A stretch of DNA of 61,388 nt, filler included, from Malassezia furfur (Eukaryota): NCBI GenBank assembly GCA_052055015.1. It is 2 parts of 2 records of this genome, joined end to end, with 100 filler letters (N's around TTAATTAATTAA, not from the genome) between each part and the next. Parts side by side here need not be neighbours in the genome. Positions count along the whole stretch, not along the records: positions 30,828 to 61,388 come from JBQJIT010000099.1; 1 more part is not named here. One strand, 5' to 3'. The translations under genes and the position numbers were made by a program. Shown piece after piece: positions 5,425 through 61,388 of this stretch. Positions within the stretch are counted from its first letter, which is position 1. Each line of letters starts with the position of its first letter. Under the pieces are notes generated by a model, which ran no database searches, had not been told where the DNA came from, and saw nothing but the letters and a program-made list of their open reading frames with translations.

Positions 5425-7340
5425 CTACTTCATCGCGCCGCCCATCCAGGCGAACACGAGGAACGCACATCCGTACGGCGAGGCAAGCTGTGTCAGTCGA
5501 GCGACGTACACGGTTCAGCATGTAGCCCATCGGCGCAGCAATCTTTCCTGTGCGCGGCCCCAACCGCTGCGCAAAGTGCCAGAACCGGCTCCCGAGCGTG
5601 CCCGCCTCCGGGCGCAGCGCCTGCAGGATCGGCGTCGGCGGCTGCGGCAATGCGGGCGGCGCAGCTCCCCATGGCCGCGGCGCGGACGCCTTGCACAGCT
5701 CGGGATACACAAACGGGCGCACAAAGTACGTCTGCGCCAGCAGCCGCAGCGACGACATGCGCGAGCCCGGCGGCGCGGTGAGTCGCGCATACCGCAGGAG
5801 CTTGGTAAAGGTGCTCTGCGCGTAGCGACGCTTGCGTGCCTTGGCGCGCGCGCGCATGGCACGCACGTTACGCGGCGGCGACGGCGGATGCGACGCGGAG
5901 GTGCGGTTCGCCGGCACACCCTTCACGACGCGCGGCAGCGAGATGCGCCGGCGCAGAGGCCGCAGGCGCCGCACCGACTGGGTGTAGCTCACGCGCGGCA
6001 CTGGGTACATGGTGCGGACCGGGCGCACCGTGTATGCGACGCTCGCCCAGCGGTGCGGCGGAATGCGCGACCTGGACGGCGTGCGCAGCGCGGACGCAGC
6101 GGGCCTGCGTGGGCGGTCCCAGACGTGCAGGCCGTACCAGAGGACCATGCGCATGTACTCGATCGGGCGGCTCACCAGTTCGTACAGCAGCGCACCGATC
6201 GCGCCGCCGCACACGAGGATGAACGCCGCCGTGATCCGCCCGTACACGGTGTGGCTTGCATTGTACGAAAAGTCGAGATGCACCTTTTCCCCGTCGTCTT
6301 CCGTGTGCTGGTTCTTGGCGAGCGCGCGCGGACCACCAAGTCGAAGGAAGCGCACGACGTTGTCGACCGCGAGCGACGCATGGAACGCGACGTACCGCGC
6401 CCACTCAAATGACACAAAGAAGCACGAGAACCCAGCGGAGTCGCGGATCAGCGAGAGGAACAGGCTTGTACCGTGCACGCGCCGCGACAGGAGGCGCAGG
6501 TGGTTCGGCAGGTGCTGGAACGCCGTCGCGGTCTTGGGCTCGCGCGAGACGGTCGGGCGCGTCATGCGCTGGATCAGGCGGTGGTACCAGTTCTCCGGCA
6601 GGAAGGGCAAGATACCGGCCTGCATGATCGTGCGCCAGGTCTGCACGGGGTGTCGTACGACTGCGGGGAGCATCGCCTGATTGCGCACATCGCGCACCAG
6701 CAAGCGCTGCAGCACCAGGCGCACGTTGTCGAGCGGCGCCGCGATGATACACTGCGCCGCACCAGCGACGGCGCCGGCAATCGCGACCACCTTGGTGGGC
6801 GTAAACCGCCCGCTGCGTTCGTACGCCTCTTCGGCGTGGTGCTTGTGAAGCAGCAGATCCTGCGTCAGAGTGTACGTCTGGAACAGCGTGAACCCGATCG
6901 CGATGTTGGCGACTGTGTCAGTTGCATCACCTACACATGGGCGGAACCACCAGCGAGAGCAAGAGGATGGGCTGCGTGAGCGGCCCAAGGCGGACGTACC
7001 TTTTCTTGTCGGATGAGCCGGCGCAGGTAGGGCACGCCGAGTTTCTTGCCCTCACGGCGTGCCATCAGCTCGACCAACGAGAGAGACGAGACTACGTGTA
7101 AGTGTGGCACGTACACTGCATGGGCCGAAACAGGCGGATCGGCCGCTGGAACATGAACGACAGCGAGCTGACCACCGCGCGCACAAAGGCGCTCGCCGCC
7201 GAGTCGATGCGGTTGATTCCGGAGCGTGCGCTCTTGACGAGCTCGCGCGACTCGGAGTCCGAGCCGTCGTTCGCAGGGATCGTTGCTGCGTCGGCCGCAT
7301 CCTGTCGCAGCGGCCCCGCTGCGCCTGTTTCCCCCGGCAT
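5425..7340 (-). CDS. Mitochondrial carrier-like membrane protein
   Basis: Carrier signatures AAPLDNVR and SRPIEYMR, plus LIRDSAGFSCFFVSFE. Introns 7114-7092, 6999-6972, 6934-6913, 5509-5488. Confidence 0.7.
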
Positions 7341-21282: not shown

Positions 21283-23793
21283 ATGGCCATGGCGTGGCGC
21301 GCAGCGATGTTGGCCTCCCTGCGGCGCAGCGCGGCCGCGCAGCGCGGCACGCGCGCGCTCACCACGGCGCGCATTGCTCGCGCCGAGTCACGCACTATTC
21401 CGATTCCAGCACAGCCGACCGGCGTTGCGCAACTGCTCAACGACGCGTGCTCGAACGAAGCCGGCGCCTACCTCGCGGCGCGCGACAGCAAAGGCCAGCC
21501 TGTGTCATTGCATGCGCAAATCGGTGGGGAGAAGGACGCACAATCCATTACATTCCTTCCCTTCGAGTCCAAAGACAAGCTCGCGCAACGCTCCATGTGG
21601 ATTTCGGCGGCGTACCTCTTGAGCGCTGCACTGGACACTGTGTGCGATGGACGCATCATGACCAGCACGCCCACCGTCACATCCAACAGCGGCGACCGGA
21701 TTGATGCCACGTCGGGCTTTTCGCTCGAGGCACTCCAGAGTGCGCCCCCGGAACCGATCACGTACGGCGCCGATGCTCAAGCGGCGGCGTCAAACGTCGC
21801 TGCGGCGCTTGCTGATGCCTTCGCCCATGCTCATACCCCAAAACTTGCCAAGGGCGATAAAGAACTCCTGGAGAAGGAGATGAAGCGCCTTAGCAGCGCG
21901 AACCATGACTTTATTCTCGAAGAGGTGCCGTGGGAAGCGGCTTGGGCCCTGTTCGCACGCAATCCTCTTAAACTTGACGCACTCTTGCGTTTCGCGCGCA
22001 TGCGCGGGGAGGAGCGGCCTCATATACCTTTGGTACGTCTAAGCAAGACGTCGTTTGTCGATCTTGCGCCCTGGGACTGCGAGGACGCTGTCGTGCTACG
22101 CCGTACCAAGCCGATCAAGGCCAGCAAAGTACTCCTCAGCGCTGCGGCGTCGCTGCCAGCTGACTGGGCGAGCCTTGCACCCAATGCAGGGCAAGTTTTG
22201 CTACGTGTGCGCGGGATTGCATTCCCCAATGCGGCCGACTTGCAGCACTATGCCCAACAGATTGCCGAGATGGAAAAGGCTGACCACCGCCTACTGGGTC
22301 TGGCCCAGGGCCTGTTCTTTGCCCATGACTCTTCACCGGGCAGTCCGTTTGTGATGGTGCATGGGATGCGCCTCATTCGTAAAGTTGAGCGCGCTATCCG
22401 CGACTTATACGACGTGTTCGGGTACGAAGAAGTGCAGACGCCGCAGCTGTATCGCAGCTCGCTGTGGAAACAGAGTGGGCATTGGGACAAGTACCGCGAA
22501 GACATGTTTAGCGCGCAGGGCTTTGCGGAGGAGGCGGCTGCGTCACGCGGGTGCTGCGGCGCCCATGACGCGCAATCGCACCTCTTTGGCCTGAAACCGA
22601 TGAACTGCCCAGGGCATTGTGTGCTCTTTGCGCACCAGCCGCGCTCCTATCGCGAGCTGCCGATGCGGGTCGCCGAATTTAGTCCGCTGCATCGCAATGA
22701 GGCGACCGGCGCCTTGTCCGGTTTGACCCGCGTGCGGCGCTTCCACCAGGATGACGCCCACGTCTTTTGCACACCCGAGCAGGTCTCAACCGAAATCCAG
22801 TCGATGCTGCACATGCTCGCGCTGGCATACGGCGTGTTTGGGTTCGGCAGTCGCTTCGAGCTGGTGCTCTCGACACGCCCGGACAACTACATTGGCGAGA
22901 TTGACGTGTGGAACGCGGCCGAAGCCAGCCTTAAGGAGGCGCTCGACAAGAGCGGACGGCCCTGGTCGCTCAACGAAGGCGACGGTGCCTTTTACGGGCC
23001 CAAGATCGATATCCGGCTCGTGGATGCTATGGGACGCAAGCATCAAACGGCCACGATCCAACTTGATTTCCAGCTGCCTGAGCGCTTCCAGCTGGAATAT
23101 GCACTGCCAGACCCGAACGAGGTGCGTCCGGGGATGCGACCAGGGCATGCACGCCCCGTCATGATCCACCGCGCAATCCTCGGCAGCTTTGAGCGGTTTT
23201 TGGCAATTCTGTTGGAGCAGTGCCGCGGGTGGTGGCCGTTCTGGCTCAGTCCACGCCAGGCGGTAGTCGTGCCGACGTACAGCAGCTCTGACCCCGCGGT
23301 GCAGGAGCGTGTGTCGGCGTATGCACGTCAGGTGCGCCACCAGCTTGCTCGCGGGCTGCACGACGATGCTCAACATCCGAACGGGCCATTCTTGGTACCG
23401 GGGATGGCGCATCATGCGCTCGAGGTGCCAAGCCGCACGCGCTTCTTTGTTGAGCTGCCGCCTCACTACCTCGAGCCCGCCGGCGAGACGCTTGGGAAAA
23501 AGGTGCGCCAAGCGCAGCTGAATCGCTTCAATTTCATCGTGATTGTTGGACAGCAAGAGGCCGAGCAGGGCACAGTCAGTGTGCGGATCCGCGACGAGCG
23601 CCATGCGCCTGCCTGGCACACATCGGTCGACAGCGCACCGGGTGTGCCGCAGGCCAAGGTACAGGATATGGTGCTCTCGGCGATCCGTGCCACGTTCCCA
23701 GACAAGCCGCTTGGCACAGGCGTCGACCTGGGGACATGGCGCGTGGAGGAGCTCCGCCGCCTGTTCTGTGTCTTGGATGCGCTCCACGTATAG
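21283..23793 (+). CDS. MST1: Mitochondrial threonyl-tRNA synthetase
   Basis: Presequence at ATG 21283, then LKPMNCPGH, HRNE..GLTRVRRFHQDDAH, GAFYGPKID, IHRAILGSFER. The ORF-track extension to 20239 is antisense to the lactonase. Confidence 0.9.
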   Translation: MAMAWRAAMLASLRRSAAAQRGTRALTTARIARAESRTIPIPAQPTGVAQLLNDACSNEAGAYLAARDSKGQPVSLHAQIGGEKDAQSITFLPFESKDKLAQRSMWISAAYLLSAALDTVCDGRIMTSTPTVTSNSGDRIDATSGFSLEALQSAPPEPITYGADAQAAASNVAAALADAFAHAHTPKLAKGDKELLEKEMKRLSSANHDFILEEVPWEAAWALFARNPLKLDALLRFARMRGEERPHIPLVRLSKTSFVDLAPWDCEDAVVLRRTKPIKASKVLLSAAASLPADWASLAPNAGQVLLRVRGIAFPNAADLQHYAQQIAEMEKADHRLLGLAQGLFFAHDSSPGSPFVMVHGMRLIRKVERAIRDLYDVFGYEEVQTPQLYRSSLWKQSGHWDKYREDMFSAQGFAEEAAASRGCCGAHDAQSHLFGLKPMNCPGHCVLFAHQPRSYRELPMRVAEFSPLHRNEATGALSGLTRVRRFHQDDAHVFCTPEQVSTEIQSMLHMLALAYGVFGFGSRFELVLSTRPDNYIGEIDVWNAAEASLKEALDKSGRPWSLNEGDGAFYGPKIDIRLVDAMGRKHQTATIQLDFQLPERFQLEYALPDPNEVRPGMRPGHARPVMIHRAILGSFERFLAILLEQCRGWWPFWLSPRQAVVVPTYSSSDPAVQERVSAYARQVRHQLARGLHDDAQHPNGPFLVPGMAHHALEVPSRTRFFVELPPHYLEPAGETLGKKVRQAQLNRFNFIVIVGQQEAEQGTVSVRIRDERHAPAWHTSVDSAPGVPQAKVQDMVLSAIRATFPDKPLGTGVDLGTWRVEELRRLFCVLDALHV

Positions 23794-27282: not shown

Positions 27283-29093
27283 ATGGACGGTGCGCCTAAG
27301 CGCCGGCGCGCCGGCGACGAGGAGGAGTTTGTGTACACTTATGACGACGATACCTACCAGCCGTATATCCCGGTGAAGCAGCGTAAGCAGCAGACAATTG
27401 AGCGGCTAGGCTTGCGCGCGCGCGCGCCGCGCAAAGAGCCCGACGAGGCGGAGGAAGTAACGCCGCCGCCCGTGCATACCTTGCTCCAGGAGGCGCAGGA
27501 ACTGCGCGAGAAGCAGCGTGCACAGGGCCATGAACCCACGCAGGCAGAGAGGGAGGCAGAGGAGGAGCGCAGAATCCTTGAGGCGCACAAGGCCCACAAA
27601 AAACTGGCGTCGCATGCGGAATTAGCTCAGGGCATTCAGTACACCGACCCGCTGCGTCGCAGTTGGACGCCACCGCGGTTTGTACGTGCACGGTCGGCAG
27701 ATCACCATGATGCCATCCGGCAGCAGCACCATATCCTCGCCGACGGAGACCGCATCCCTCCGCCGATTGCCCACTTTCGCGATATGAAACTACCGCCGTG
27801 CATCCTGGCTTACCTTGCGCAGAAGAACATTCACACCCCTTCGCCAATCCAGATTCAGGGGCTTCCTACTGTCCTATCTGGTCGCGATATGATTGGCATC
27901 GCCTTTACTGGGAGCGGCAAGACCATCACCTTTACGCTCCCCCTCGTCCTCTTTGCAGCCGAGGCCGAAGCGCGGCTGCCCTTTGATGCTAGCGACGGGC
28001 CGCTCGGCTTGATTTTGTGCCCTTCTCGCGAGTTGGCACGACAGACGTACGACAATGTGCTGGCCATGGCCGAGGCCCTCGAGCAGGCCGGGTACGCGCG
28101 CGTCAAAGCGTTGCTATGCATTGGTGGCATCTCCATGTCGGAGCAGGCGCACACACTGCGCTCCGGCTTCCACATTGTTGTGGCTACTCCAGGACGGCTA
28201 CAGGATCTACTCGAGCAGGGACGGTTCTCGCTGGCATCGTGCAACTACGTGTGTCTGGACGAGGCGGACCGCATGATGGAGGGCAGCTTTGAGGAGAATG
28301 TGCGCAACATCCTCGATTTTTTGCAGCGGCAGCGCCAAACGCTGCTCTTCTCAGCGACCATGCCCAAAAAGATCCTCGACTTTGCCGAACAGTCGCTCGT
28401 GCAGCCCGTGGTGGTGAACGTGGGCCGCGCAGGCGCCGCTAGCCTGGACGTGATTCAGGAGGTGGAGTGGGTCGCACCCGAGACCAAGATGGCGGCGCTG
28501 CTCGAGGTGCTGCAGAAGACGGCGCCGCCCGTGATTATCTTTAGCGACAACAAGAACGAGGTGGACGACATCCTCGAGTTTCTGTTGCGCAAGGGCATCG
28601 ATGCCGTATCGATCCATGGATCTAAGACGCAGGAGGAGCGCGAGTATGCTATCTCCACATTTAAGCGCGGTAAGCGCGACGTGATGGTCGCGAGCGGCGT
28701 CGCGAGCAAGGGCCTCGACTTTTCCCAAATCCAGCACGTCATCAACTATACCATGCCCAAAGACATTGAGGATTACGTGCACCAGATTGGGCGAACAGGG
28801 CGCAGCGGCAAGACGGGCATCGCCACGACGTTTGTGCACAAAGGTGTACCGGAACCCACGCTACTCGATCTCAAGTATCTGCTCCTGGAAGCGAAGCAGC
28901 GGTACGTCTCTTGACTCACCTCAGGATCCCACCATTTCTTTTGGAGATCGAAGACAATCGTGCCTCGCTCGGCACCCACATGGGGTGTGCGTACTGCGGC
29001 GGCCTCGGGCACACCATCAAGCACTGCCCCAAACTCGAAGAAACCCAACGCCGCGCTACGTCGCACATCGGCCGCGATAGCGGCGGCTATTAA
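27283..29093 (+). CDS. DDX41: DEAD-box RNA helicase DDX41/Abstrakt
   Basis: GIAFTGSGKT, DEAD, SAT, VASKGLDF, C-terminal zinc knuckle CAYCGGLGHTIKHC. 23-nt intron 28902-28924. Confidence 0.92.
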
Positions 29094-30827: not shown

Positions 30828-31006
30828 CTGCGCGCCGGGGTACATGACGAGCCGCCCGTCGTTCGACGGCGCGCGGCGCGACGCGGGCGCCGCACGCCGC
30901 CAAGCGCGAGGCGGACGCACCGACAGATGCCGCGGAAGCACCTGAGGCTGCGCAAGTCGCGCCAGATGCGCTGGTCGCACCTCCCGCACCGTGGCCGCCG
31001 GCGCTC

Positions 31007-34000
31007 ATGGAGCTCGGCAAGACCTTTCGTGTACGTCACCTTCTGACGCAGGCGCTGTGCACCGTGTACACGTTTTGCTCTGCACACAAACAGCTCCTCA
31101 CCTCCTTTGATACGATCCGCAACGGCGTCGAGGCACTCACTCGGGCGTACGTTTCTCGCACTCACCCCAGCGCGCTGCGGGTCGAGGACCTGGCACAGAT
31201 CAAAGCCGTGTGCCCCGAACTGCTCGACATTGCCTATGTTCCTACAGCAAGCGTGCGAGATGCTGACAAGAAACGTAAGCGTGACGACGACGTCTATGCC
31301 CCTCCAGATGCGCAGGCCCCCGAGTACACGTTGCTCGTCGAGTTCACCGACGGCACCGTCGACACGGGCAAAATGTCGCGCCATGGCGTGCACCCTCCCA
31401 AGGTTGCGCCCGAGCATGCGACGCGTGCGCTGATTGAGCGACGCAACGACACGTTCCGGCGTGCCGTCGATACCCTGGTCGCTGCGAGCAACGAGGCGGT
31501 ACGTGCGCCGCTGACCCAGCACACGGACGCCGTGGCACTTGTCCGGGAGGCGAGCCACCAATACATCCCCGTACGCCCTGGCGAGGTGCCGGCCGACCAC
31601 GAGCGGCGTGTCCAGCGTGCGCGTCTCGCGGAATGGGAAGCCAACCCGGCGTCGAAGCCGAGTGTGCGCGCGGTGCTTGCCGCACTGCCCGAGCAGCCAT
31701 GGTGGCGCGAGCAGATTGTTCCGGGCGGGCGGCGGACGTTTGAAGCACGGGCAGCGCAGTACGCGATGCCGGATAGGCCGCTGCGTGCCGAAATTGCCGA
31801 GGCAATCGAACATGCCCATGGCATCACGCAGCTGTACACGCACCAGGCGCGCGCGGTGAGTGCGATGCAGCGGGGTCAGCACGTCGTGGTGTCGACCGGG
31901 ACATCGTCGGGTAAGTCCCTCGTGTACCAGATCCCGATCGCCACGGCGCTGCTAGACGATGCGGCAGCCACCGCACTGTGCATCTTCCCCACCAAGGCGC
32001 TGACGCAAGACCAGCGGCAGTCCCTTGAGCGCGTGCTGTTTGCCTGTGGCCTAAACGCAACGGTCGCCACGTACGACGGAGATACGCCGCGCGACGCGCG
32101 CCGTGAGATCCGCACATCGGCGCGCGTGCTGTTCACCAACCCCGACATGTTGCACCAGTCCATCTTGCCGCACGAGGAGGCGTGGCGCCGCTTCTTCCGT
32201 GGGCTACGCATCGTTGTCGTCGACGAGGTGCACGTATACACAGGGACGTTTGGCGTGCACGTCGCGCTTATCCTGCGCCGTCTCCGCCGCGTGTGTGCGG
32301 CACTCGGCAACGACCAGCTGCAGTTCGTAAGCTGCAGTGCGACGATCGCCAACCCGGCAGTGCACATGGCGACACTCCTGGCGCTTGCGCCCGACGAGGT
32401 CGCCAGCGTCGAGGAGGACGGCTCGCCGTGCGGTGCCAAGGAGTGGGTCGTGTGGAACCCGCCCGAGGTGGATCCGGATGCGCTCGTCGGCCCTCGCGTC
32501 AGTGCGTACACCGAGGTGTCGCGCGTGTTCCGGCACCTGCTCCTACACGGCCTGCGTACGATTGTCTTTGCCAAGGTGCGCCGCACGTGCGAGATCATCG
32601 TACGCCAGGTGCGCGAGGACCTGGCGCGCGACGGGCACGCGGACCTTGCCGAGCGCGTGCACGGCTACCGTTCGGGCTATTCGCCCGCGGACCGCCGCCG
32701 CCTCGAGCACGCGATGCGCGCCGGCGACGTGCTTGGTCTCGTGGCCACGACGGCGCTCGAGCTCGGCATGGACATTGGGAGCCTCGATGCGGTGGTTTTG
32801 TTTGGCGTGCCGTACTCGGCGGCGAGCATGTACCAGCAGGCCGGTCGTGCAGGCCGGCGGCAGCGCGATGCCCTCGTTGTCGTACTGACCGAGCCGTTTG
32901 CAGTCGACCAATACTGTGCCCAAAACCCCGAGGTGCTGTTTGCCGCGCCCCATGCACCGCTGGTGCTCGACGTGCACAACGAGCTGCTGCTTGTACCGCA
33001 CCTGCAGTGCGCCGCACTCGAGGTGCCGATCTGCGTCACGGACGACGAGCGCTTCTTTGGCCCGCGGCTCGCTGCGCTGTGTGCTGCGCACCTCGAGCGT
33101 GACGGCGCAGGCTACTTTCACTACACAGACGTGCACGGTGCACAGCCGGCGCGGGAGATTTCCATCCGCGGCGCACGCCAGGAGACGTACAAGTACGTCG
33201 ACGCACGCACCGGCACCGTGCTGGAAGAAGTCGAGCTGGAGCGCGTCTTTTTCGAGGCATTCCAAGGTGCCGTCTTCCTGCACCAAGGGCACAGCTACGT
33301 GTGCGACGACATCCTGCACGACCTGCACCTCGCATTGATGCGCCGCGCCGACGTCCTGTACCACACACGCCCGCGCGATCTAACCGACACGGACGCGACA
33401 CAGACGCGGCGCATCCGCACGCTCGAGCACGCCGCCGACGTGCTCGCCTACTTTGGACAGGTCACGCTCACCTCGCGCGTGTGGGGCTACTACAAGGTGG
33501 ACCGCCGCGGTAACATCCTCGACATGGTCGAGGTCGACGCCGCGCCGCTCGTGCGCACTACGCAGGGCCTCTGGATCGACGTGCCGTGGGCGCTTGTGCA
33601 GACCATCGCCGCGCAAGGCGTCAACGCCTCGGCGGCGATCCACGCCGCGGAGCACGCGATTTTGAGCCTCACGCCGCTGTTTGTCGCGAGCGGCACCGAG
33701 GACGTGCGCACCGAGTGCAAGCTCCTCCGCCGAGAAATCGGCGAGCAGCGGCGCGCGACGCAGCGCAAGCGGCCCTCACGCCTGATCTTCTACGACAAGC
33801 CCGGTAACGATGGGGGGACGTGCGCACTGGTGTTTGCGCACCTCGACGCGCTTCTGCGCATCGCACTCTCGGTCATCGAGGCGTGCCCGTGTGCGGATGG
33901 GTGCCCGGGGTGCATCAAAACCACGGCGTGTTCGGGCGATGCCGAAGTCTCGTCCAAGGCGGGCGCAGGCGCTGTGCTTCGTGGACTCCTCGGCCAGCGC

Positions 34001-41722: not shown

Positions 41723-44286
41723 ATGCAAGTCCGGCGAGAACGAGGCATGGTCCGTGGAAGAAGTAGAGACACGCCGTACGAGATCGAAGATGCAGGACCC
41801 TTCGATGAGCAGGTGGAACTGTCTCTCTTGCACGATGGGAAGCCCCCGAGCCCCGGGGATGCCGAGTCACAGCTCTTCGACGAAGAGCATACGCTCCAAA
41901 TGGTGCGCCAAGTCGTGCCAGAAACCGATATACCAACGCTGCCATCCCTAACGTTTCGCTCCGTGCTACTCGGAAGTATTTTTACGGTTCTTGGTGCAGG
42001 GATGTCACAATTGTTTTTCTACAAGTCTAATGCACCCGTGTTCAGCAGTTACTTTGTGATCCTAGTCACGCTTCCAATGGCGCGTTGGATGGCAAGTGCC
42101 TTGCCAGACCGCCGCGTCAATCTATTCGGGTGGCATTTTCGACTAAATCCAGGGCCATTCAGTGCCAAAGAGCACGTCCTAATTGCCGTGACCGTGACGT
42201 CCGGCGCGACGAGTGCCTATGCTTCGGATATCATCAACATTCAGGAGCTCTTTTTCCACCAACACATGAGTGCAATTCCTGCACTCACTCTTCTGATTAC
42301 GACGCAGGTAATTGGATTCGGGTTTGCCGGGCTGGTGTATGACCTGTTGGTGCGGCCGCCGTCTATGGTTTACCCCAGTACGTTGGTGACCGTTTCCCTG
42401 TTCAATACACTACACGATACCGAGTCGTCTTTGACCCGCGTCCGAATGCGCTTCTTTCTGCTTGTGTTTGGTGGCATCTTTGTATACCAGTTCCTGCCGA
42501 CGACCCTGTTTCCCACACTCAGCAGCATTGCCACGCTTTGTTATGTGCATCGCAGCCGAGTAACACAAATTCTGAGCTCCGGCTACCGCGGGTTCGGTAT
42601 CCTCAACTTCAGCTTTGATTGGAACGTGGTGGGATCAAGTGGTCCGCTTTTCCAGCCATGGTGGGCGGCGCTCAACTTCTACGCAGGGATCATGGGCATG
42701 ATGTATGTGGTTATGCCTCTCCTCTACTTCTTCAACTTCTGGGAAGCCCAGTCGTTTCCAGCGGTACTCAGCTCGGGGCTGTTCACGTCAAACTACACGA
42801 AGTTTGACGTGGATGGCGTTCTTAAGAAAGACAACAGTCTGGATGACGCGGCATGGGAGCAAAATAAGCCCATGCTTCTTACGCCCTTTTGTACGTGATA
42901 TGCTCACCCAGTCGCATTGTCGTATGGCATTTCAGTACGTTTTTTTTACTGACCCAGTTTGCGGTGTTGACGAGCACAGTATGTGAGAGGCTGATCCAGA
43001 TCACGCATGTACTTTTGTGGCACGGCAAGGAGATCAAAAAGGCGCTGTTTAATCCGGTGTACTCGGTAGGTGCTTTGTGCTAACCCAGGATGTGCACAAC
43101 AAACTCATGCAGTCGTATCCCCTTGTTCCCCAGTCCTGGTATCTCTGGACGCTGGCGCTCTCGCTAGGCTCGGCATCGATCCTGGTCATGACAAACCCGC
43201 TGCAGTTCCCAGTCTGGGGTCTGCTGTTGTCGGTCGGCATGTCGCTGTTTTTCCTGATACCCATCGGCATTCTCAAGGCCGTCAGCGATACCGGCGTGGG
43301 ATTGAACGTGATTACTGAGTATGTGGTCTCTTAACCCAGATTTGTCGCAGGGTTCCTCATTCCCGGCAAGCCGATCGGAAGTGCGTTTACTTACTGCTGA
43401 CCTAGATGTGTGCTGGAAATGCTATGGATACATGAGCTGTGCACAGGCGCTGGACCTAATCGGCGATATGAAGCTGGCGCATTATATGAGTACGTTCTTG
43501 GCTGACCCCAGAAATCAATCCAAAACACATGTACGTACATGCAACGTCTGACTGGCAGGTTTTTGTCGCAGTTGTTGTACGTGTCGACCTGACGCAGGGG
43601 CACGGTGATTGGATGTTTTATGAACTATTTGGTGGTGTGCATTGTACTTGCGCCGCAGAATGGATACCGCCAGTTTTTAGACGGAAGCGGTACGTCACAA
43701 GCTCACACAGTACCGGATCCAAGTGGTCAATGGGATGGACGGTTCGTGACCTCACTCATCGCAGCAAAGTGCATATCTTTCGGTCAGCGTCGATTATTTG
43801 GGGTGCGGTCGGTCCTGAGCGCTTCTTTGCAGGACGCTACCGCAGCCTATACTGGGGCTTTGCTCTCGGTGTGTTGATTCCCCTGGTTCCCTGGTTGCTC
43901 CACAAGCGCCTGGAGCGGGCGAAGCGCATGGTCTTACGCGAGTCGGTTTTCAGCAAGACGGTTGTGCCTATCATTCTACACGGCGCCATTGCACCCCCAG
44001 CAACACCGACAAACGTACGTGCCGTGGCTCACCTAGATCATTTTGGGCGGATTGGTCTGTGCGTACTTGTCGCAGAAATGGGCGCGTGAGCGACACCCCG
44101 AGTGGTTCGGCAAATTCAAGTACGTGTGACGCTTACACTAGCTATGTGCTCTCCGCAGCCCTCGACGCCGGTGCATCTATCAATGCGCTGTCCGTCTTTG
44201 TGCTGTCCATTACGTTCTTCCGCTGGTGGGGCCTTCCCCACTTCTTTGCCGGAACCGATGCAGAGCACTGTCAGGTTGCCTCATAG
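41723..44286 (+). CDS. OPT-family oligopeptide transporter
   Basis: LTFRS, LNPGPFSAKEH, GLNVITEF, DMKLAHYMKI, NYVLSAALDAG. 13 introns of 21-28 nt between 42891 and 44141. Start is 41723 or 41747. Confidence 0.93.
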
Positions 44287-58106: not shown

Positions 58107-59200
58107 CTATATGGGGGGCACAAAGTCATTGATGCGGTCGCGCGCGTTCTGCGCGATACACTCGGCGATCCAGCAAATCGAGCGGATTTCCTGCTCTTTG
58201 AGTTTGAGCCAGGAGTAGAAAATGCCGTACTCGAACTGGTTCATCGTCAAAAGACGGTTCACTGCGGTCAGTGCTGCATCGACGTACTCTCCACCTCCAA
58301 CTCGAACATCTTGTCCTCAAGCATGTCGGCGTTCACCTCCCCGCCCGCCGACATGTTACTCCCGTTGTTGTCCTCAAACAGACGGCGGTATTCCGGCACG
58401 GACTCGACGATCGCCTTGACCTGGTCGAGTTCGTCGGCCTTGGCGAGCGCGTTGTTCCCCGCAGGGTACAGCTTGCCGATCGTCGGGAAGAGGCGCGCGC
58501 GCTCCGTCTTGCTCAGCGACGTGCCGAACGAGTTGATGGTGATATTAATCGTGCGGCGATCCGCCTCGAACGCCAGCAGTTCGCCCATGCTCTCGGCGGT
58601 CGTGGCGTTGAGTGTCTGTGTGAACTGGTAAAAGTCTTCCAGGTAAGCCTTGTACAGCTTGTTGCGAATGATCTCGATGTTGAGATCGTCCAGCTCCGAC
58701 GCCGAGAGACAGTCACGGAAGTAGGCGGAGAGCGGCGTCTCGACGAGCACGGTGCGATACAGCTCCTCGACGCTCGTTGCGACACACAGCGCCGGAAGCG
58801 TGTCGAACCACCCCAGCGGGTGGCACCGATCGAGCAGCTCGTGCGTGTCGCGGCCATGGAGAGTGCCCGTAATCAGGAGGATGACGTTGTCGATCATGTA
58901 CGAGTAGGTGAGATAGTCGAGGAACTTGCTCAGCGGCGCGGTCGAGTTCGTGCGCAAGTACTCAAACTCACTCACGAGCCGCTGCGTTGCGCGGTTCGCG
59001 ATTGCCGACGTGCTCAGCGGCGACGGCTCGTTCGCGAGGAAGTTGCCGTAATCCGTCGCGGAGAGCTGCATGCGCATGTCGTCCAGCGTCTCGCACTGCG
59101 TCAGCGCCTGGTAGTTGGGTCCAGTAAGCATCGAGTTGCGGTACCCGCGCACGATCCCCTCTAGGAAGCCGCCATTGATGTTGAACGTGAGCGCCTCCAT
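58107..59200 (-). CDS. VMA6: V-ATPase V0 subunit d
   Basis: MEALTFNINGGFLEGIVRGY, CHPLG, FEADRR, LKLKEQEIR..WIAECIAQ. 26-nt intron 58287-58262. Confidence 0.95.
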
Positions 59201-59287
59201 GCTTGCCCGTCGCTCCCGGCAAGGTGGAGCGACTGCGCGCTGCCCGCTCAAGCACGTGGACTCGGCCGAAACGCGTCGCCTCCTGCG

Positions 59288-61388
59288 ATGGTGTTCATTG
59301 TGAAGCTGCCGGCGCGCAGCGCGTCGCAGCGCCCGCTGCGGACCGACGACGGAGACCAGGCACTCTCTGGTGCGAAGGAAATGCAGGTTGGTACAGAAGA
59401 TATGCCGCGTGCGGCGCCGCCCGTGTCCGTCGCGACATGGGCGGCCCAACCTACCGCTCCGCCCGTCGCACAGACCGGCGGCGATTTACGCGCGGCCGAC
59501 GCGCCGTCGACGCCGCCCACGGTACACGACACCGTGCCCAAGCATGACGATGCGCCAATGACGCGTACTCAGCCTGCGCAATGCGCACTCGATATCCTTC
59601 TTGCGCCGTCAGTGCTCCGGCACCGCTATGTGCGCGGCGTCGACAAGTCAAGCATTGTCGAGCGCCCCGAGCGTATTCGTGCGGTGCTGCTCGGCATCGC
59701 AGGTGCCTATGGACTGTACGAAGCGATGCCCAAGGCCGCCAAGGCGGAGACCCCCGACGATCTCGCGTCGATGCTGTCTGGCATGGACATGAACAAGGAG
59801 CGGCCGACGGAGTCGCCGGCGATGCGCGCGTTCGTGAGCAGGCGAAGCGTTGCACTCGACGACACGGAGCCCGCACTCGCCTACGTGCATGCGCACGAGC
59901 CTGCCGCATACGGTACCGCGACGCAATACACGCCCGACTCCGTCGCCCACGGTACGACGCACCTCGCGCGCCTCGTCCAGCTGGGCGCGCAGGCGCCCAA
60001 TGCCGCACCGGACCGCGTGCAGCATCGTGCGGCTGCGGGCTCCGACGACTCGTCGAGCGATGGCGAGGGCGACGTGCGCATGCACCCTAGCGAGGTGCCC
60101 GAGCAGCTTCCGCAGGGCGACCTGTACCTGTGTGGACCGCACGCGGCAGGTGCCCAAGATACCCACGACGGCGGCTCGCGCGAGGCAATTAGCCACGCGC
60201 TCGGCGCGGCGATCGATGCGGTCGACCGCGTGGTGGCCGGCGCGCAGGCTGCGCCGCCGGTGCGCACCGACCTCGAGCTGCGTCCGCTCGCGGCGGCCGC
60301 AGCGCTCGCGACGGACGCGGCTGGCGTTGCCGCCGCACACGCGAGCGAGCATATACCCGCGCGACGTGCGTTTGTGCTCTCGCGCCCGCCCGGCCACCAC
60401 TGTAGCGGCGCGCAGCCACAAGGGTTCTGCTGGGTGAACAATGCCGTGGTCGCCGCGGCGCATGCGCATGCGGCGCACGGCATCGACCGCGTGGTGGTGC
60501 TCGACATCGACCTGCACCACGGCAACGGCACGCAGTCGCTCGCGTGGCGGATCAACGCTGAGGCGGTCAAGGCGGACGCCGACCGCGCTGCGCGCCTCGC
60601 CGCGCACCGCCGCGCGACGCGCGGGCGCAAGCAGGAGCGGCGTGAAACGTACGAGCAGCTGTGCGAGGACGAGACGCTGGTCGGCCGCCGTGCGTTGCAG
60701 ATTTGCTACACGAGCCTGCACGACATTGACAGTTTCCCGTGTGAGGACGGGGACGCGGAGTACGTGCGCAACGCGAGTGTGTGCCTCGCCGGGGCGCACG
60801 GGCAGTGGATTTGGAATGGTACGTTGCGCCCGAGGATGAGACGATGTCTAGTAAAAGGTCCGACGGAGCCGCGCGAGCCGCGTGCACCGCGTGACGAGGA
60901 CGCGACGCGGAGGGCTTCCTTCCAGGAGCAGGCTAACCCCAGTGCACCTCGCGACGCACCGCGACGACGCCGAGTTCGACCGGCTCTACACGGAGAAATA
61001 TGCGGCGATCCTCGCCAAGGCGCGCGAGTTCGCGCGTGCGACACACGCCCATGCGCCGCGCACGCTTGTACTGATCTCGTGTGGCTTTGACGCATGCACC
61101 TACGAGTACCCCGGGATGCAGCGGCACGGCAAGCACGTCCCGCCCGCATTCTACGCGCGGTTTGCGCGTGACGCCGCGCAGCTTGCCGACGAGATCGCCG
61201 ACGGGAAGCTCGTGAGCCTGCTCGAGGGCGGCTACTCGGACCGCGCGCTGACCAGCGGCGCGCTCGCACACGTCGGCGCGCTCGCAGGACTCGACGGCAT
61301 GCAGCACGAGCCGCGCCCCTGGAGCTTGGACCACTTGGCGCAGCTCGAGCGCATGGCCAAGCGCGTCGGCGCCGCAGGTGCCGCCGCG
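59288..61388 (+). CDS. HOS3: Histone deacetylase Hos3-like, 3'-partial
   Basis: ERPERIRA, QGDLYLC, RPPGHH, GFCWVNN, DIDLHHGNGTQ, SCGFDA, LEGGY. 124-nt intron 60819-60942 restores WNVHL. Confidence 0.9.
60828..60915 (+). ncRNA. Intronic box C/D guide RNA (sno/scaRNA) with antisense element to U5 snRNA loop 1
   Basis: Terminal stem GCCC/GGGC. Box C AGGATGA 60833-39, guide TCTAGTAAAAGGT 60847-59, D' CCGA 60860-63, C' GTGACGA 60891-97, D CGGA 60908-11. Confidence 0.75.

Follow-up and report, generated by a model that had tools for sequence, protein, structure and literature searches.

A conserved guide-like element in the HOS3 intron of Malassezia furfur, a candidate box C/D RNA for U5 loop 1

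The stretch analysed (hereafter the window) comprises 61,388 nucleotides (nt) of Malassezia furfur DNA (GenBank assembly GCA_052055015.1) in two parts joined by filler letters, of which the second, positions 30,828 to 61,388, comes from JBQJIT010000099.1. Close to its end lies a gene coding for a HOS3-type histone deacetylase, interrupted by a spliceosomal intron within which motifs are laid out as in box C/D small nucleolar RNAs (snoRNAs), together with a putative guide complementary to loop 1 of the U5 small nuclear RNA (snRNA). The intron starts with GTACGT and ends with CAG, and its branch site CTAAC (60933-60937) is nine bases from the 3' end. The reading frame upstream of it ends in ...GAHGQWIWN, the downstream one opens with (V)HLATHRDD, and both exons match the Pfam histone deacetylase domain PF00850 (profile positions 76-163 and 217-297). 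In the annotated orthologues of M. yamatoensis, M. psittaci, M. pachydermatis, M. vespertilionis, M. furfur, M. japonica, M. brasiliensis, and Ustilago maydis the junction (marked by a slash) reads WIWN/[VI]HL with no insert, and a database protein identical to the product encoded in the window also joins as WIWN/VHL. The 124-nt splice, proposed in a preliminary description of this DNA made from the sequence alone, is therefore right. An alternative 5' site, GTGACG at 60891, which would define a frame-preserving intron of 52 nt, was ruled out, since the 24 residues it would insert are absent from all the annotated orthologues.

The G+C content of the window is 62%, and the candidate introns that carry consensus signals have lengths clustering at 21-31 nt, so that the earlier statement that the HOS3 intron is about five times the local norm is a fair one. 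Examples of these short candidates are found on both strands (28902-28924, 31031-31051, 43577-43597, and, on the minus strand, 5488-5509); they carry GTACGT or GTATGT, CTGAC or CTAAC, and CAG, and introns of such extreme shortness are expected for Malassezia. A heuristic joining open reading frames (ORFs) returned 19 other candidates longer than 70 nt in the window, three of them being alternative 5' sites that share the 3' site of the HOS3 intron; the heuristic is non-discriminating in G+C-rich DNA.

All the motifs that had been listed for the intron, i.e., the stem, the bulge, the boxes, the internal pair, and the guide, are present in it (Table 1). Boxes C and D each deviate from the consensus by one base, as had been recognized, and so do D' and C'. 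The layout of a kink turn (K-turn) is found in the species of the window, with the GCCC/GGGC stem, the GAG bulge, and the GA of GAUGA lying opposite the GA of CGGA. The U-to-G change in box D would place a U.G pair in the K-turn, where U.U is usual, while the change in box C sits on the base that normally protrudes; from what is generally known of K-turns, both changes should be tolerable. The preliminary description called this K-turn layout canonical, an adjective that overstates the case for the species of the window, since each of the boxes C, D, and D' differs from the consensus by one base.

Table 1. Features of the HOS3 intron (positions in the window) and translated tails read after WIWN in the species of the window and its relatives (P numbers denote ORFs of the protein collection described in the text)
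Feature	Position	Strand	Sequence	Remark
HOS3-type histone deacetylase intron	60819-60942	+		spliceosomal, phase 1, 124 nt; sequence reading, orthologue comparison
Terminal stem, 5' strand	60828-60831	+	GCCC	pairs with GGGC 60912-60915
3-nt bulge	60832-60834	+	GAG	sequence reading
Box C-like	60833-60839	+	AGGAUGA	holds GAUGA 60835-60839; one mismatch with RUGAUGA, at position 2
D' antisense element	60847-60859	+	UCUAGUAAAAGGU	runs straight into D'
Conserved guide core	60851-60858	+	GUAAAAGG	kept in read-through tails of relatives
Fifth nucleotide upstream of D'	60855	+	A	faces second U of the loop in the predicted pairing
Box D'	60860-60863	+	CCGA	consensus CUGA, one base off
Internal loop region	60864-60889	+		closed by CGG 60864-60866 and CCG 60887-60889; sequence reading
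Box C'-like	60891-60897	+	GUGACGA	one base off consensus
Putative D antisense element	60898-60907	+	GGACGCGACG	sequence reading
Box D-like, then 3' stem strand	60908-60915	+	CGGA, GGGC	CGGA 60908-60911, GGGC 60912-60915; sequence reading
Tail, species of the window and M. furfur cluster			GTLRPRMRRCLVKGPTEP...	
Tail, P0014, P0022, P0158			...LVKGLKELNRHLVTTC[DN]RYLS...	
Tail, P0017			...NLVKGLKELHRHLMPTRNRYLS...	
Tail, P0016, P0018			...GRPSKRSEGA[SW]RHP.TTGNRYLS...	
Tail, P0007, P0010			...FTCKRAEGASRHP.T.EQISEA...	
Tail, P0025			...ASKRAEGAAS...	
Tail, P0027, P0035 (Pseudozyma hubeiensis), P0036 (U. maydis cluster)			...KMVKGLKK...	
Tail, P0028, P0032			...MVKGP[KR]...	
Tail, P0029			...NGKRSEEAG...	

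The evidence that goes beyond chance comes from relatives rather than from the window itself. The data are ORFs of a protein collection that were called on unspliced genomic contigs, exon 1 running on through the intron, and the tails following WIWN were compared by codon-consistent back-translation, i.e., at the level of protein and not of DNA. Compatibility with GTAAAAGGNCYGA was found for 47 of the 102 tails (23 of the 43 distinct ones), and GUAAAAGG-N-CYGA fits every one of the 47 tails that reach far enough. The remaining 55 tails, 2-25 residues long, all stop before the place of the motif; six of them have 25 residues and end just upstream of the position that the motif occupies in the sister P0025. 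The motif is translated in three codon phases (LVKGL, MVKGL, or MVKGP in one, SKRSEG or GKRSEE in another, and CKRAEG or SKRAEG in the third), and tails in three phases point to one nucleotide string, GUAAAAGG-N-CYGA. In null comparisons, 258,618 positions of coding bodies gave no compatible site, and 2000 shuffled tails gave six. Carriers of the motif include clusters holding proteins named M. furfur, M. brasiliensis, and U. maydis, as well as a Pseudozyma hubeiensis record. At the place of box D', CUGA fits 37 of the compatible tails, and only CCGA fits the other 10, which belong to the species of the window, the M. furfur cluster, P0028, and P0032. Only the 8-mer GUAAAAGG is invariant across lineages, while its flanks vary: position 1 of the guide, next to D', is U or G, and the bases 5' of the 8-mer are CUA, AUG, NAG, or NUG depending on the lineage. 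To the resolution that back-translated codons afford, the tails show that the guide and D' proposed from the window alone are conserved in the orthologous HOS3 intron across Ustilaginomycotina, in Malassezia and Ustilaginales alike.

The other parts of the predicted RNA were followed in the same tails. All 10 Malassezia-group tails allow a GAUG 17-32 nt from the start of the intron, the full RNGAUGA fits five of them, and the translation RMR recurs at the place of box C in P0002, P0003, P0016, and P0035. Among six Ustilaginales-like tails, GAUG can be placed away from the guide in two, only abutting the guide in three, and nowhere in one. A CUGA is compatible 38-44 nt after D', by back-translation only, in seven Malassezia tails (P0007, P0010, P0014, P0022, P0016, P0017, and P0018), and NUGAC is compatible at the place of C' in relatives, a weak reading made by eye. 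In three of seven relatives the codons allow a terminal stem of 5-6 Watson-Crick pairs in the K-turn register, and in three more only in other registers, a weak signal as well. The D-side guide GGACGCGACG was found not to be conserved in relatives in a comparison by eye with the back-translated tails. In the M. furfur cluster, the tail P0002 reads LAACAA and then a stop after ...LVKGPTEPR; by eye, LAACAA is another frame of GCCGCGUGCACCGCGUGA of the window (60864-60897). The difference in frame points to an indel in the internal loop that distinguishes the M. furfur cluster from the species of the window. The stop is probably read from the UGA within the predicted C' box.

The length of the intron in relatives was counted by hand from the point where each tail enters the frame-shifted exon 2, giving 116 nt for P0007, 115 nt for P0010, 143 nt for P0018, and 151 nt for P0158. 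The U. maydis intron, of ca. 287 nt as counted by hand from P0036 and the N-terminal extension of P0229, is far longer than the Malassezia ones; in the U. maydis cluster the stop ending the P0036 tail overlaps the start of the exon 2 ORF P0229, and the two ORFs together span the whole intron. Exon 2 ORFs with an N-terminal extension would provide a second reading of the 3' half of the intron, but nearly all begin at the V of VHL, and the branch and the 3' end are legible only in P0121 and P0229. There are also intron-less lineages (P0041, P0044, P0045, P0050, P0056, P0061, and P0062), which read through as WIWN[TSV]HL or WI[QT]NVHL, although some of these ORFs may come from RNA assemblies rather than genomic contigs, and the intron of P0132, ca. 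58 nt long, lacks the motif. For the HOS3 intron, public gene models of relatives conflict with one another (P0035, P0015, and P0021): the Pseudozyma hubeiensis record ends in a read-through (...WIWNGKYFF...MVKGLKK...), the M. sympodialis model joins WIWN/DDAEF, with VHLDTHK skipped, and the M. cuniculi model is without GAHSQWIWN.

The conserved 8-mer complements CCUUUUAC of U5 loop 1. The consensus of loop I is given as UGCCUUUUACY, an 11-nt loop of which nine nucleotides, GCCUUUUAC, are invariant (PMC6679479 and PMC2784804, both in part). In the predicted pairing, the fifth base before D', an A, would lie opposite the second U of this loop, equivalent to human Um41, and the target nucleotide named in the preliminary description by the fifth-nucleotide rule fits the consensus from the literature. 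In man the loop reads GmCCUUmU-psi-ACm-psi, and its Um41 is assigned to scaRNA5/6 (U87) (PMC7960923, in part). The duplex predicted for the guide of the window species and the loop I consensus, the latter being taken from the literature and not from the organism's own U5, has 10 bp and an energy of -11.5 kcal/mol, a value reached by 0.18% of random 17-mers from the window; a more extended pairing, ...GCCUUUUACUAGA, was predicted in the preliminary description. An invariant 8-mer with varying flanks would be expected if the conserved, single-stranded stretch of the target were confined to loop I. The earlier assignment of the guide to U5 loop 1 stands as far as the fit to the consensus loop, the invariance of the 8-mer, and the lack of a conserved match in ribosomal DNA (rDNA, see below) are concerned, but the target is known only as a consensus; U5 loop 1 is the best-supported target, unproven and moderately probable.

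The conservation of the guide and D' in the same intron of relatives strongly supports the box C/D reading, and a conserved intronic box C/D snoRNA, whatever its target, very probably exists. With somewhat lower confidence, the HOS3 intron is predicted to encode a stand-alone box C/D snoRNA of ca. 88 nt (roughly 60828-60915) guiding the modification of U5 loop 1, a reading slightly to be preferred to its negation. According to it, the intron would be spliced out of the HOS3 pre-mRNA, and its lariat would be debranched and trimmed to a core particle of Snu13, Nop56, Nop58, and fibrillarin assembled on a K-turn built from GCCC/GGGC, the GAG bulge, GAUGA, and CGGA. The sequence GUAAAAGG just upstream of D' would then pair with CCUUUUAC in loop 1 of U5 snRNA, allowing fibrillarin to 2'-O-methylate the U tract at its second residue, which corresponds to human Um41. 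The stable RNA, the assembly of the particle, the targeting of U5, and the methylation are all what we infer from sequence.

Several observations weigh against a U5 guide encoded in the intron. Boxes C, D, and D' are degenerate in the species of the window, and four of seven relatives do not fit a terminal stem in the canonical register. The conservation is read from degenerate back-translations and not from the relatives' DNA, and the target is taken from a consensus loop. An AU-rich duplex of 8-10 bp is short for a C/D guide, and in P0007 and P0010 position 1 of the guide is a G, mismatched with the loop G, and position 10 is a U, which leaves 8 bp. Within the window, the C/D layout (GATGA preceded by a 4-bp stem and 3 nt, then, after 45-110 nt, CNGA and the matching stem) is at chance level, being found once over the two strands taken together, at the HOS3 site, against 0.44 expected in random windows. 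The folding energy is not unusual (z = +0.84 and -0.23), and the Rfam covariance models gave no match at the gathering score in the whole window and none at E<=10 in 60700-61050. The 2'-O-methylation of U5 is not universal in fungi, as U5 of Saccharomyces cerevisiae bears one pseudouridine and no 2'-O-methyl group (PMC7960923, in part). Finally, a conserved stretch of 18S rRNA, GGACUUUUAC, can form eight uninterrupted pairs with the guide, position 2 of which is mismatched.

The last point bears on the most serious alternative, possible but less likely than U5 targeting, in which the intron does house a conserved box C/D snoRNA, and its D' guide acts elsewhere than on U5 loop 1: on a lineage-specific part of rRNA, on the 18S stretch GGACUUUUAC, on another snRNA, or on a tRNA, unless the RNA is an orphan or chaperone snoRNA. 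The conservation in the tails fits this explanation equally well, and the comparison covered the consensus U5 loop and a sample of fungal rDNA. As a control, rDNA was sampled in the form of 106 fungal stretches from metagenome contigs, located by the ITS1-F primer site, of which 32 have a near-complete 18S and seven have at least 3.9 kb downstream, i.e., most of the large subunit (LSU) gene, making the LSU coverage thin; no locus is known to be from Ustilaginomycotina. No conserved rRNA site pairing without mismatch with the 12-nt or the 9-nt guide was found in these 106 loci. On the rRNA sense strand CCTTTTAC occurs in 3/106 loci (twice at a variable place of 18S and once in ITS2), and variable-region matches such as GTCCTTTTACCAGG, in two loci, make a lineage-specific rRNA site possible. 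The nearest conserved site, 18S CCAGGACTTTTAC[TC]TTGA, is kept in the fungal sample with its eight contiguous paired bases, but it has A where the G at guide position 2 needs C: the G's at positions 2 and 3 are invariant and call for CC, whereas 18S offers AC. To our knowledge, no 2'-O-methyl U is known at this site in yeast. Moreover, rRNA guides usually conserve more than 8 nt, while here the conservation ends at the edges of the core complementary to the loop.

It is rather unlikely that GUAAAAGG-N-CYGA is a regulatory element of the HOS3 intron, i.e., a signal for splicing or intron retention or an in-cis pairing site for U5 loop 1, with the box-like motifs being coincidental. The degenerate boxes in the species of the window, the chance-level layout there, and the lack of a stable predicted structure and of an Rfam match would all suit such an element. 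However, no informative lineage has the 8-mer without a CYGA directly after it, in Malassezia a second CUGA at the fixed distance of 38-44 nt and an upstream GAUG accompany it, the stem in the K-turn register is compatible in three of seven relatives, and the introns stay 115-287 nt long in lineages whose introns are otherwise very short; long introns are expected if an RNA of ca. 90 nt is housed in them and unneeded for a signal of 13 nt. That chance alone assembled these motifs, in an intron long by accident, is by now very improbable, because the window-level figures in its favour (the single layout, two copies of GTAAAAGG against 0.48 expected, and folding z values of about 0) are set against a 13-nt motif present in 23 distinct tails in three phases and at none of the 258,618 null positions. 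The sole other copy of GTAAAAGG in the window lies at 22988-22995 on the minus strand.

The candidate U5 guide can be compared with several known systems. Vertebrate scaRNA5 and scaRNA6 (U87/U88) are long composite C/D-H/ACA RNAs of Cajal bodies, whereas the RNA of the HOS3 intron is predicted to be a simple fungal C/D RNA of ca. 88 nt with no visible H/ACA domain; no Rfam family, these two included, matches the intron at E<=10. They are alike in that a C/D-type RNA would guide fibrillarin to the second U of the invariant U5 loop, as described for the vertebrate RNAs (PMC7960923, in part), the same nucleotide being selected by the fifth-nucleotide rule. A guide in a conserved intron retained by intron-poor fungi has a parallel in snR59/snR39 of the RPL7 introns, described in a study that covers M. 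sympodialis and U. maydis among other intron-poor fungi (PMC8476143, in part). Those are rRNA guides in ribosome-related hosts, while HOS3 codes for a chromatin enzyme and the guide in its intron matches an snRNA loop; nor is the HOS3 intron one of the two conserved introns highlighted in that part of the study, those of RPL7 and NOG2. In the fungal snoRNAome, a C/D family directed to an snRNA, predicted for U6-70 (U6-55 of Neurospora crassa), is present in virtually all organisms, but the snRNA is U6, and the main text of that work, as far as examined, names no U5 target, Malassezia, or Ustilago (PMC5824354). No description of a fungal U5 guide was found in the part of the literature covered, to which the supplements of PMC5824354, which could list such a family, do not belong. 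Likewise, no paper was found that combines snoRNA, Basidiomycota, U5 snRNA, and methylation, and the papers found that join RiboMeth-seq, U5 snRNA, and Schizosaccharomyces pombe do not, to judge from their abstracts, deal with fungal U5 guides.

The chances are evenly balanced that Malassezia, Ustilago, and Pseudozyma keep the animal-type methylation of the second U of U5 loop 1 by means of a stand-alone C/D guide in the HOS3 intron. If they do, this would be the first fungal U5 guide, found in organisms with some of the shortest introns known. Loop 1 of U5 holds the exons in both steps of splicing, and its modifications are conserved in animals, their function being unknown; since U5 of budding yeast is devoid of methyl groups, they are out of reach in the usual genetic model. 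In U. maydis or Malassezia, both genetically tractable, a single intron-borne guide that can be deleted would make the question of these modifications directly testable, and the 21-31 nt introns of the lineage make the alignment of exons an especially interesting step. The presence of such an element would also explain why the HOS3 intron stays long and why the gene models of M. sympodialis, M. cuniculi, and Pseudozyma hubeiensis are inconsistent at the HOS3 junction.

In the vicinity of HOS3, an ORF on the minus strand (58268-59485), MEALTFNINGGFLEGIVRGYRNSML..., resembles subunit d of V-ATPase. It diverges from HOS3, with a short common promoter region near 59200-59500, and a candidate intron of 26 nt is found in its region at 58262-58287.

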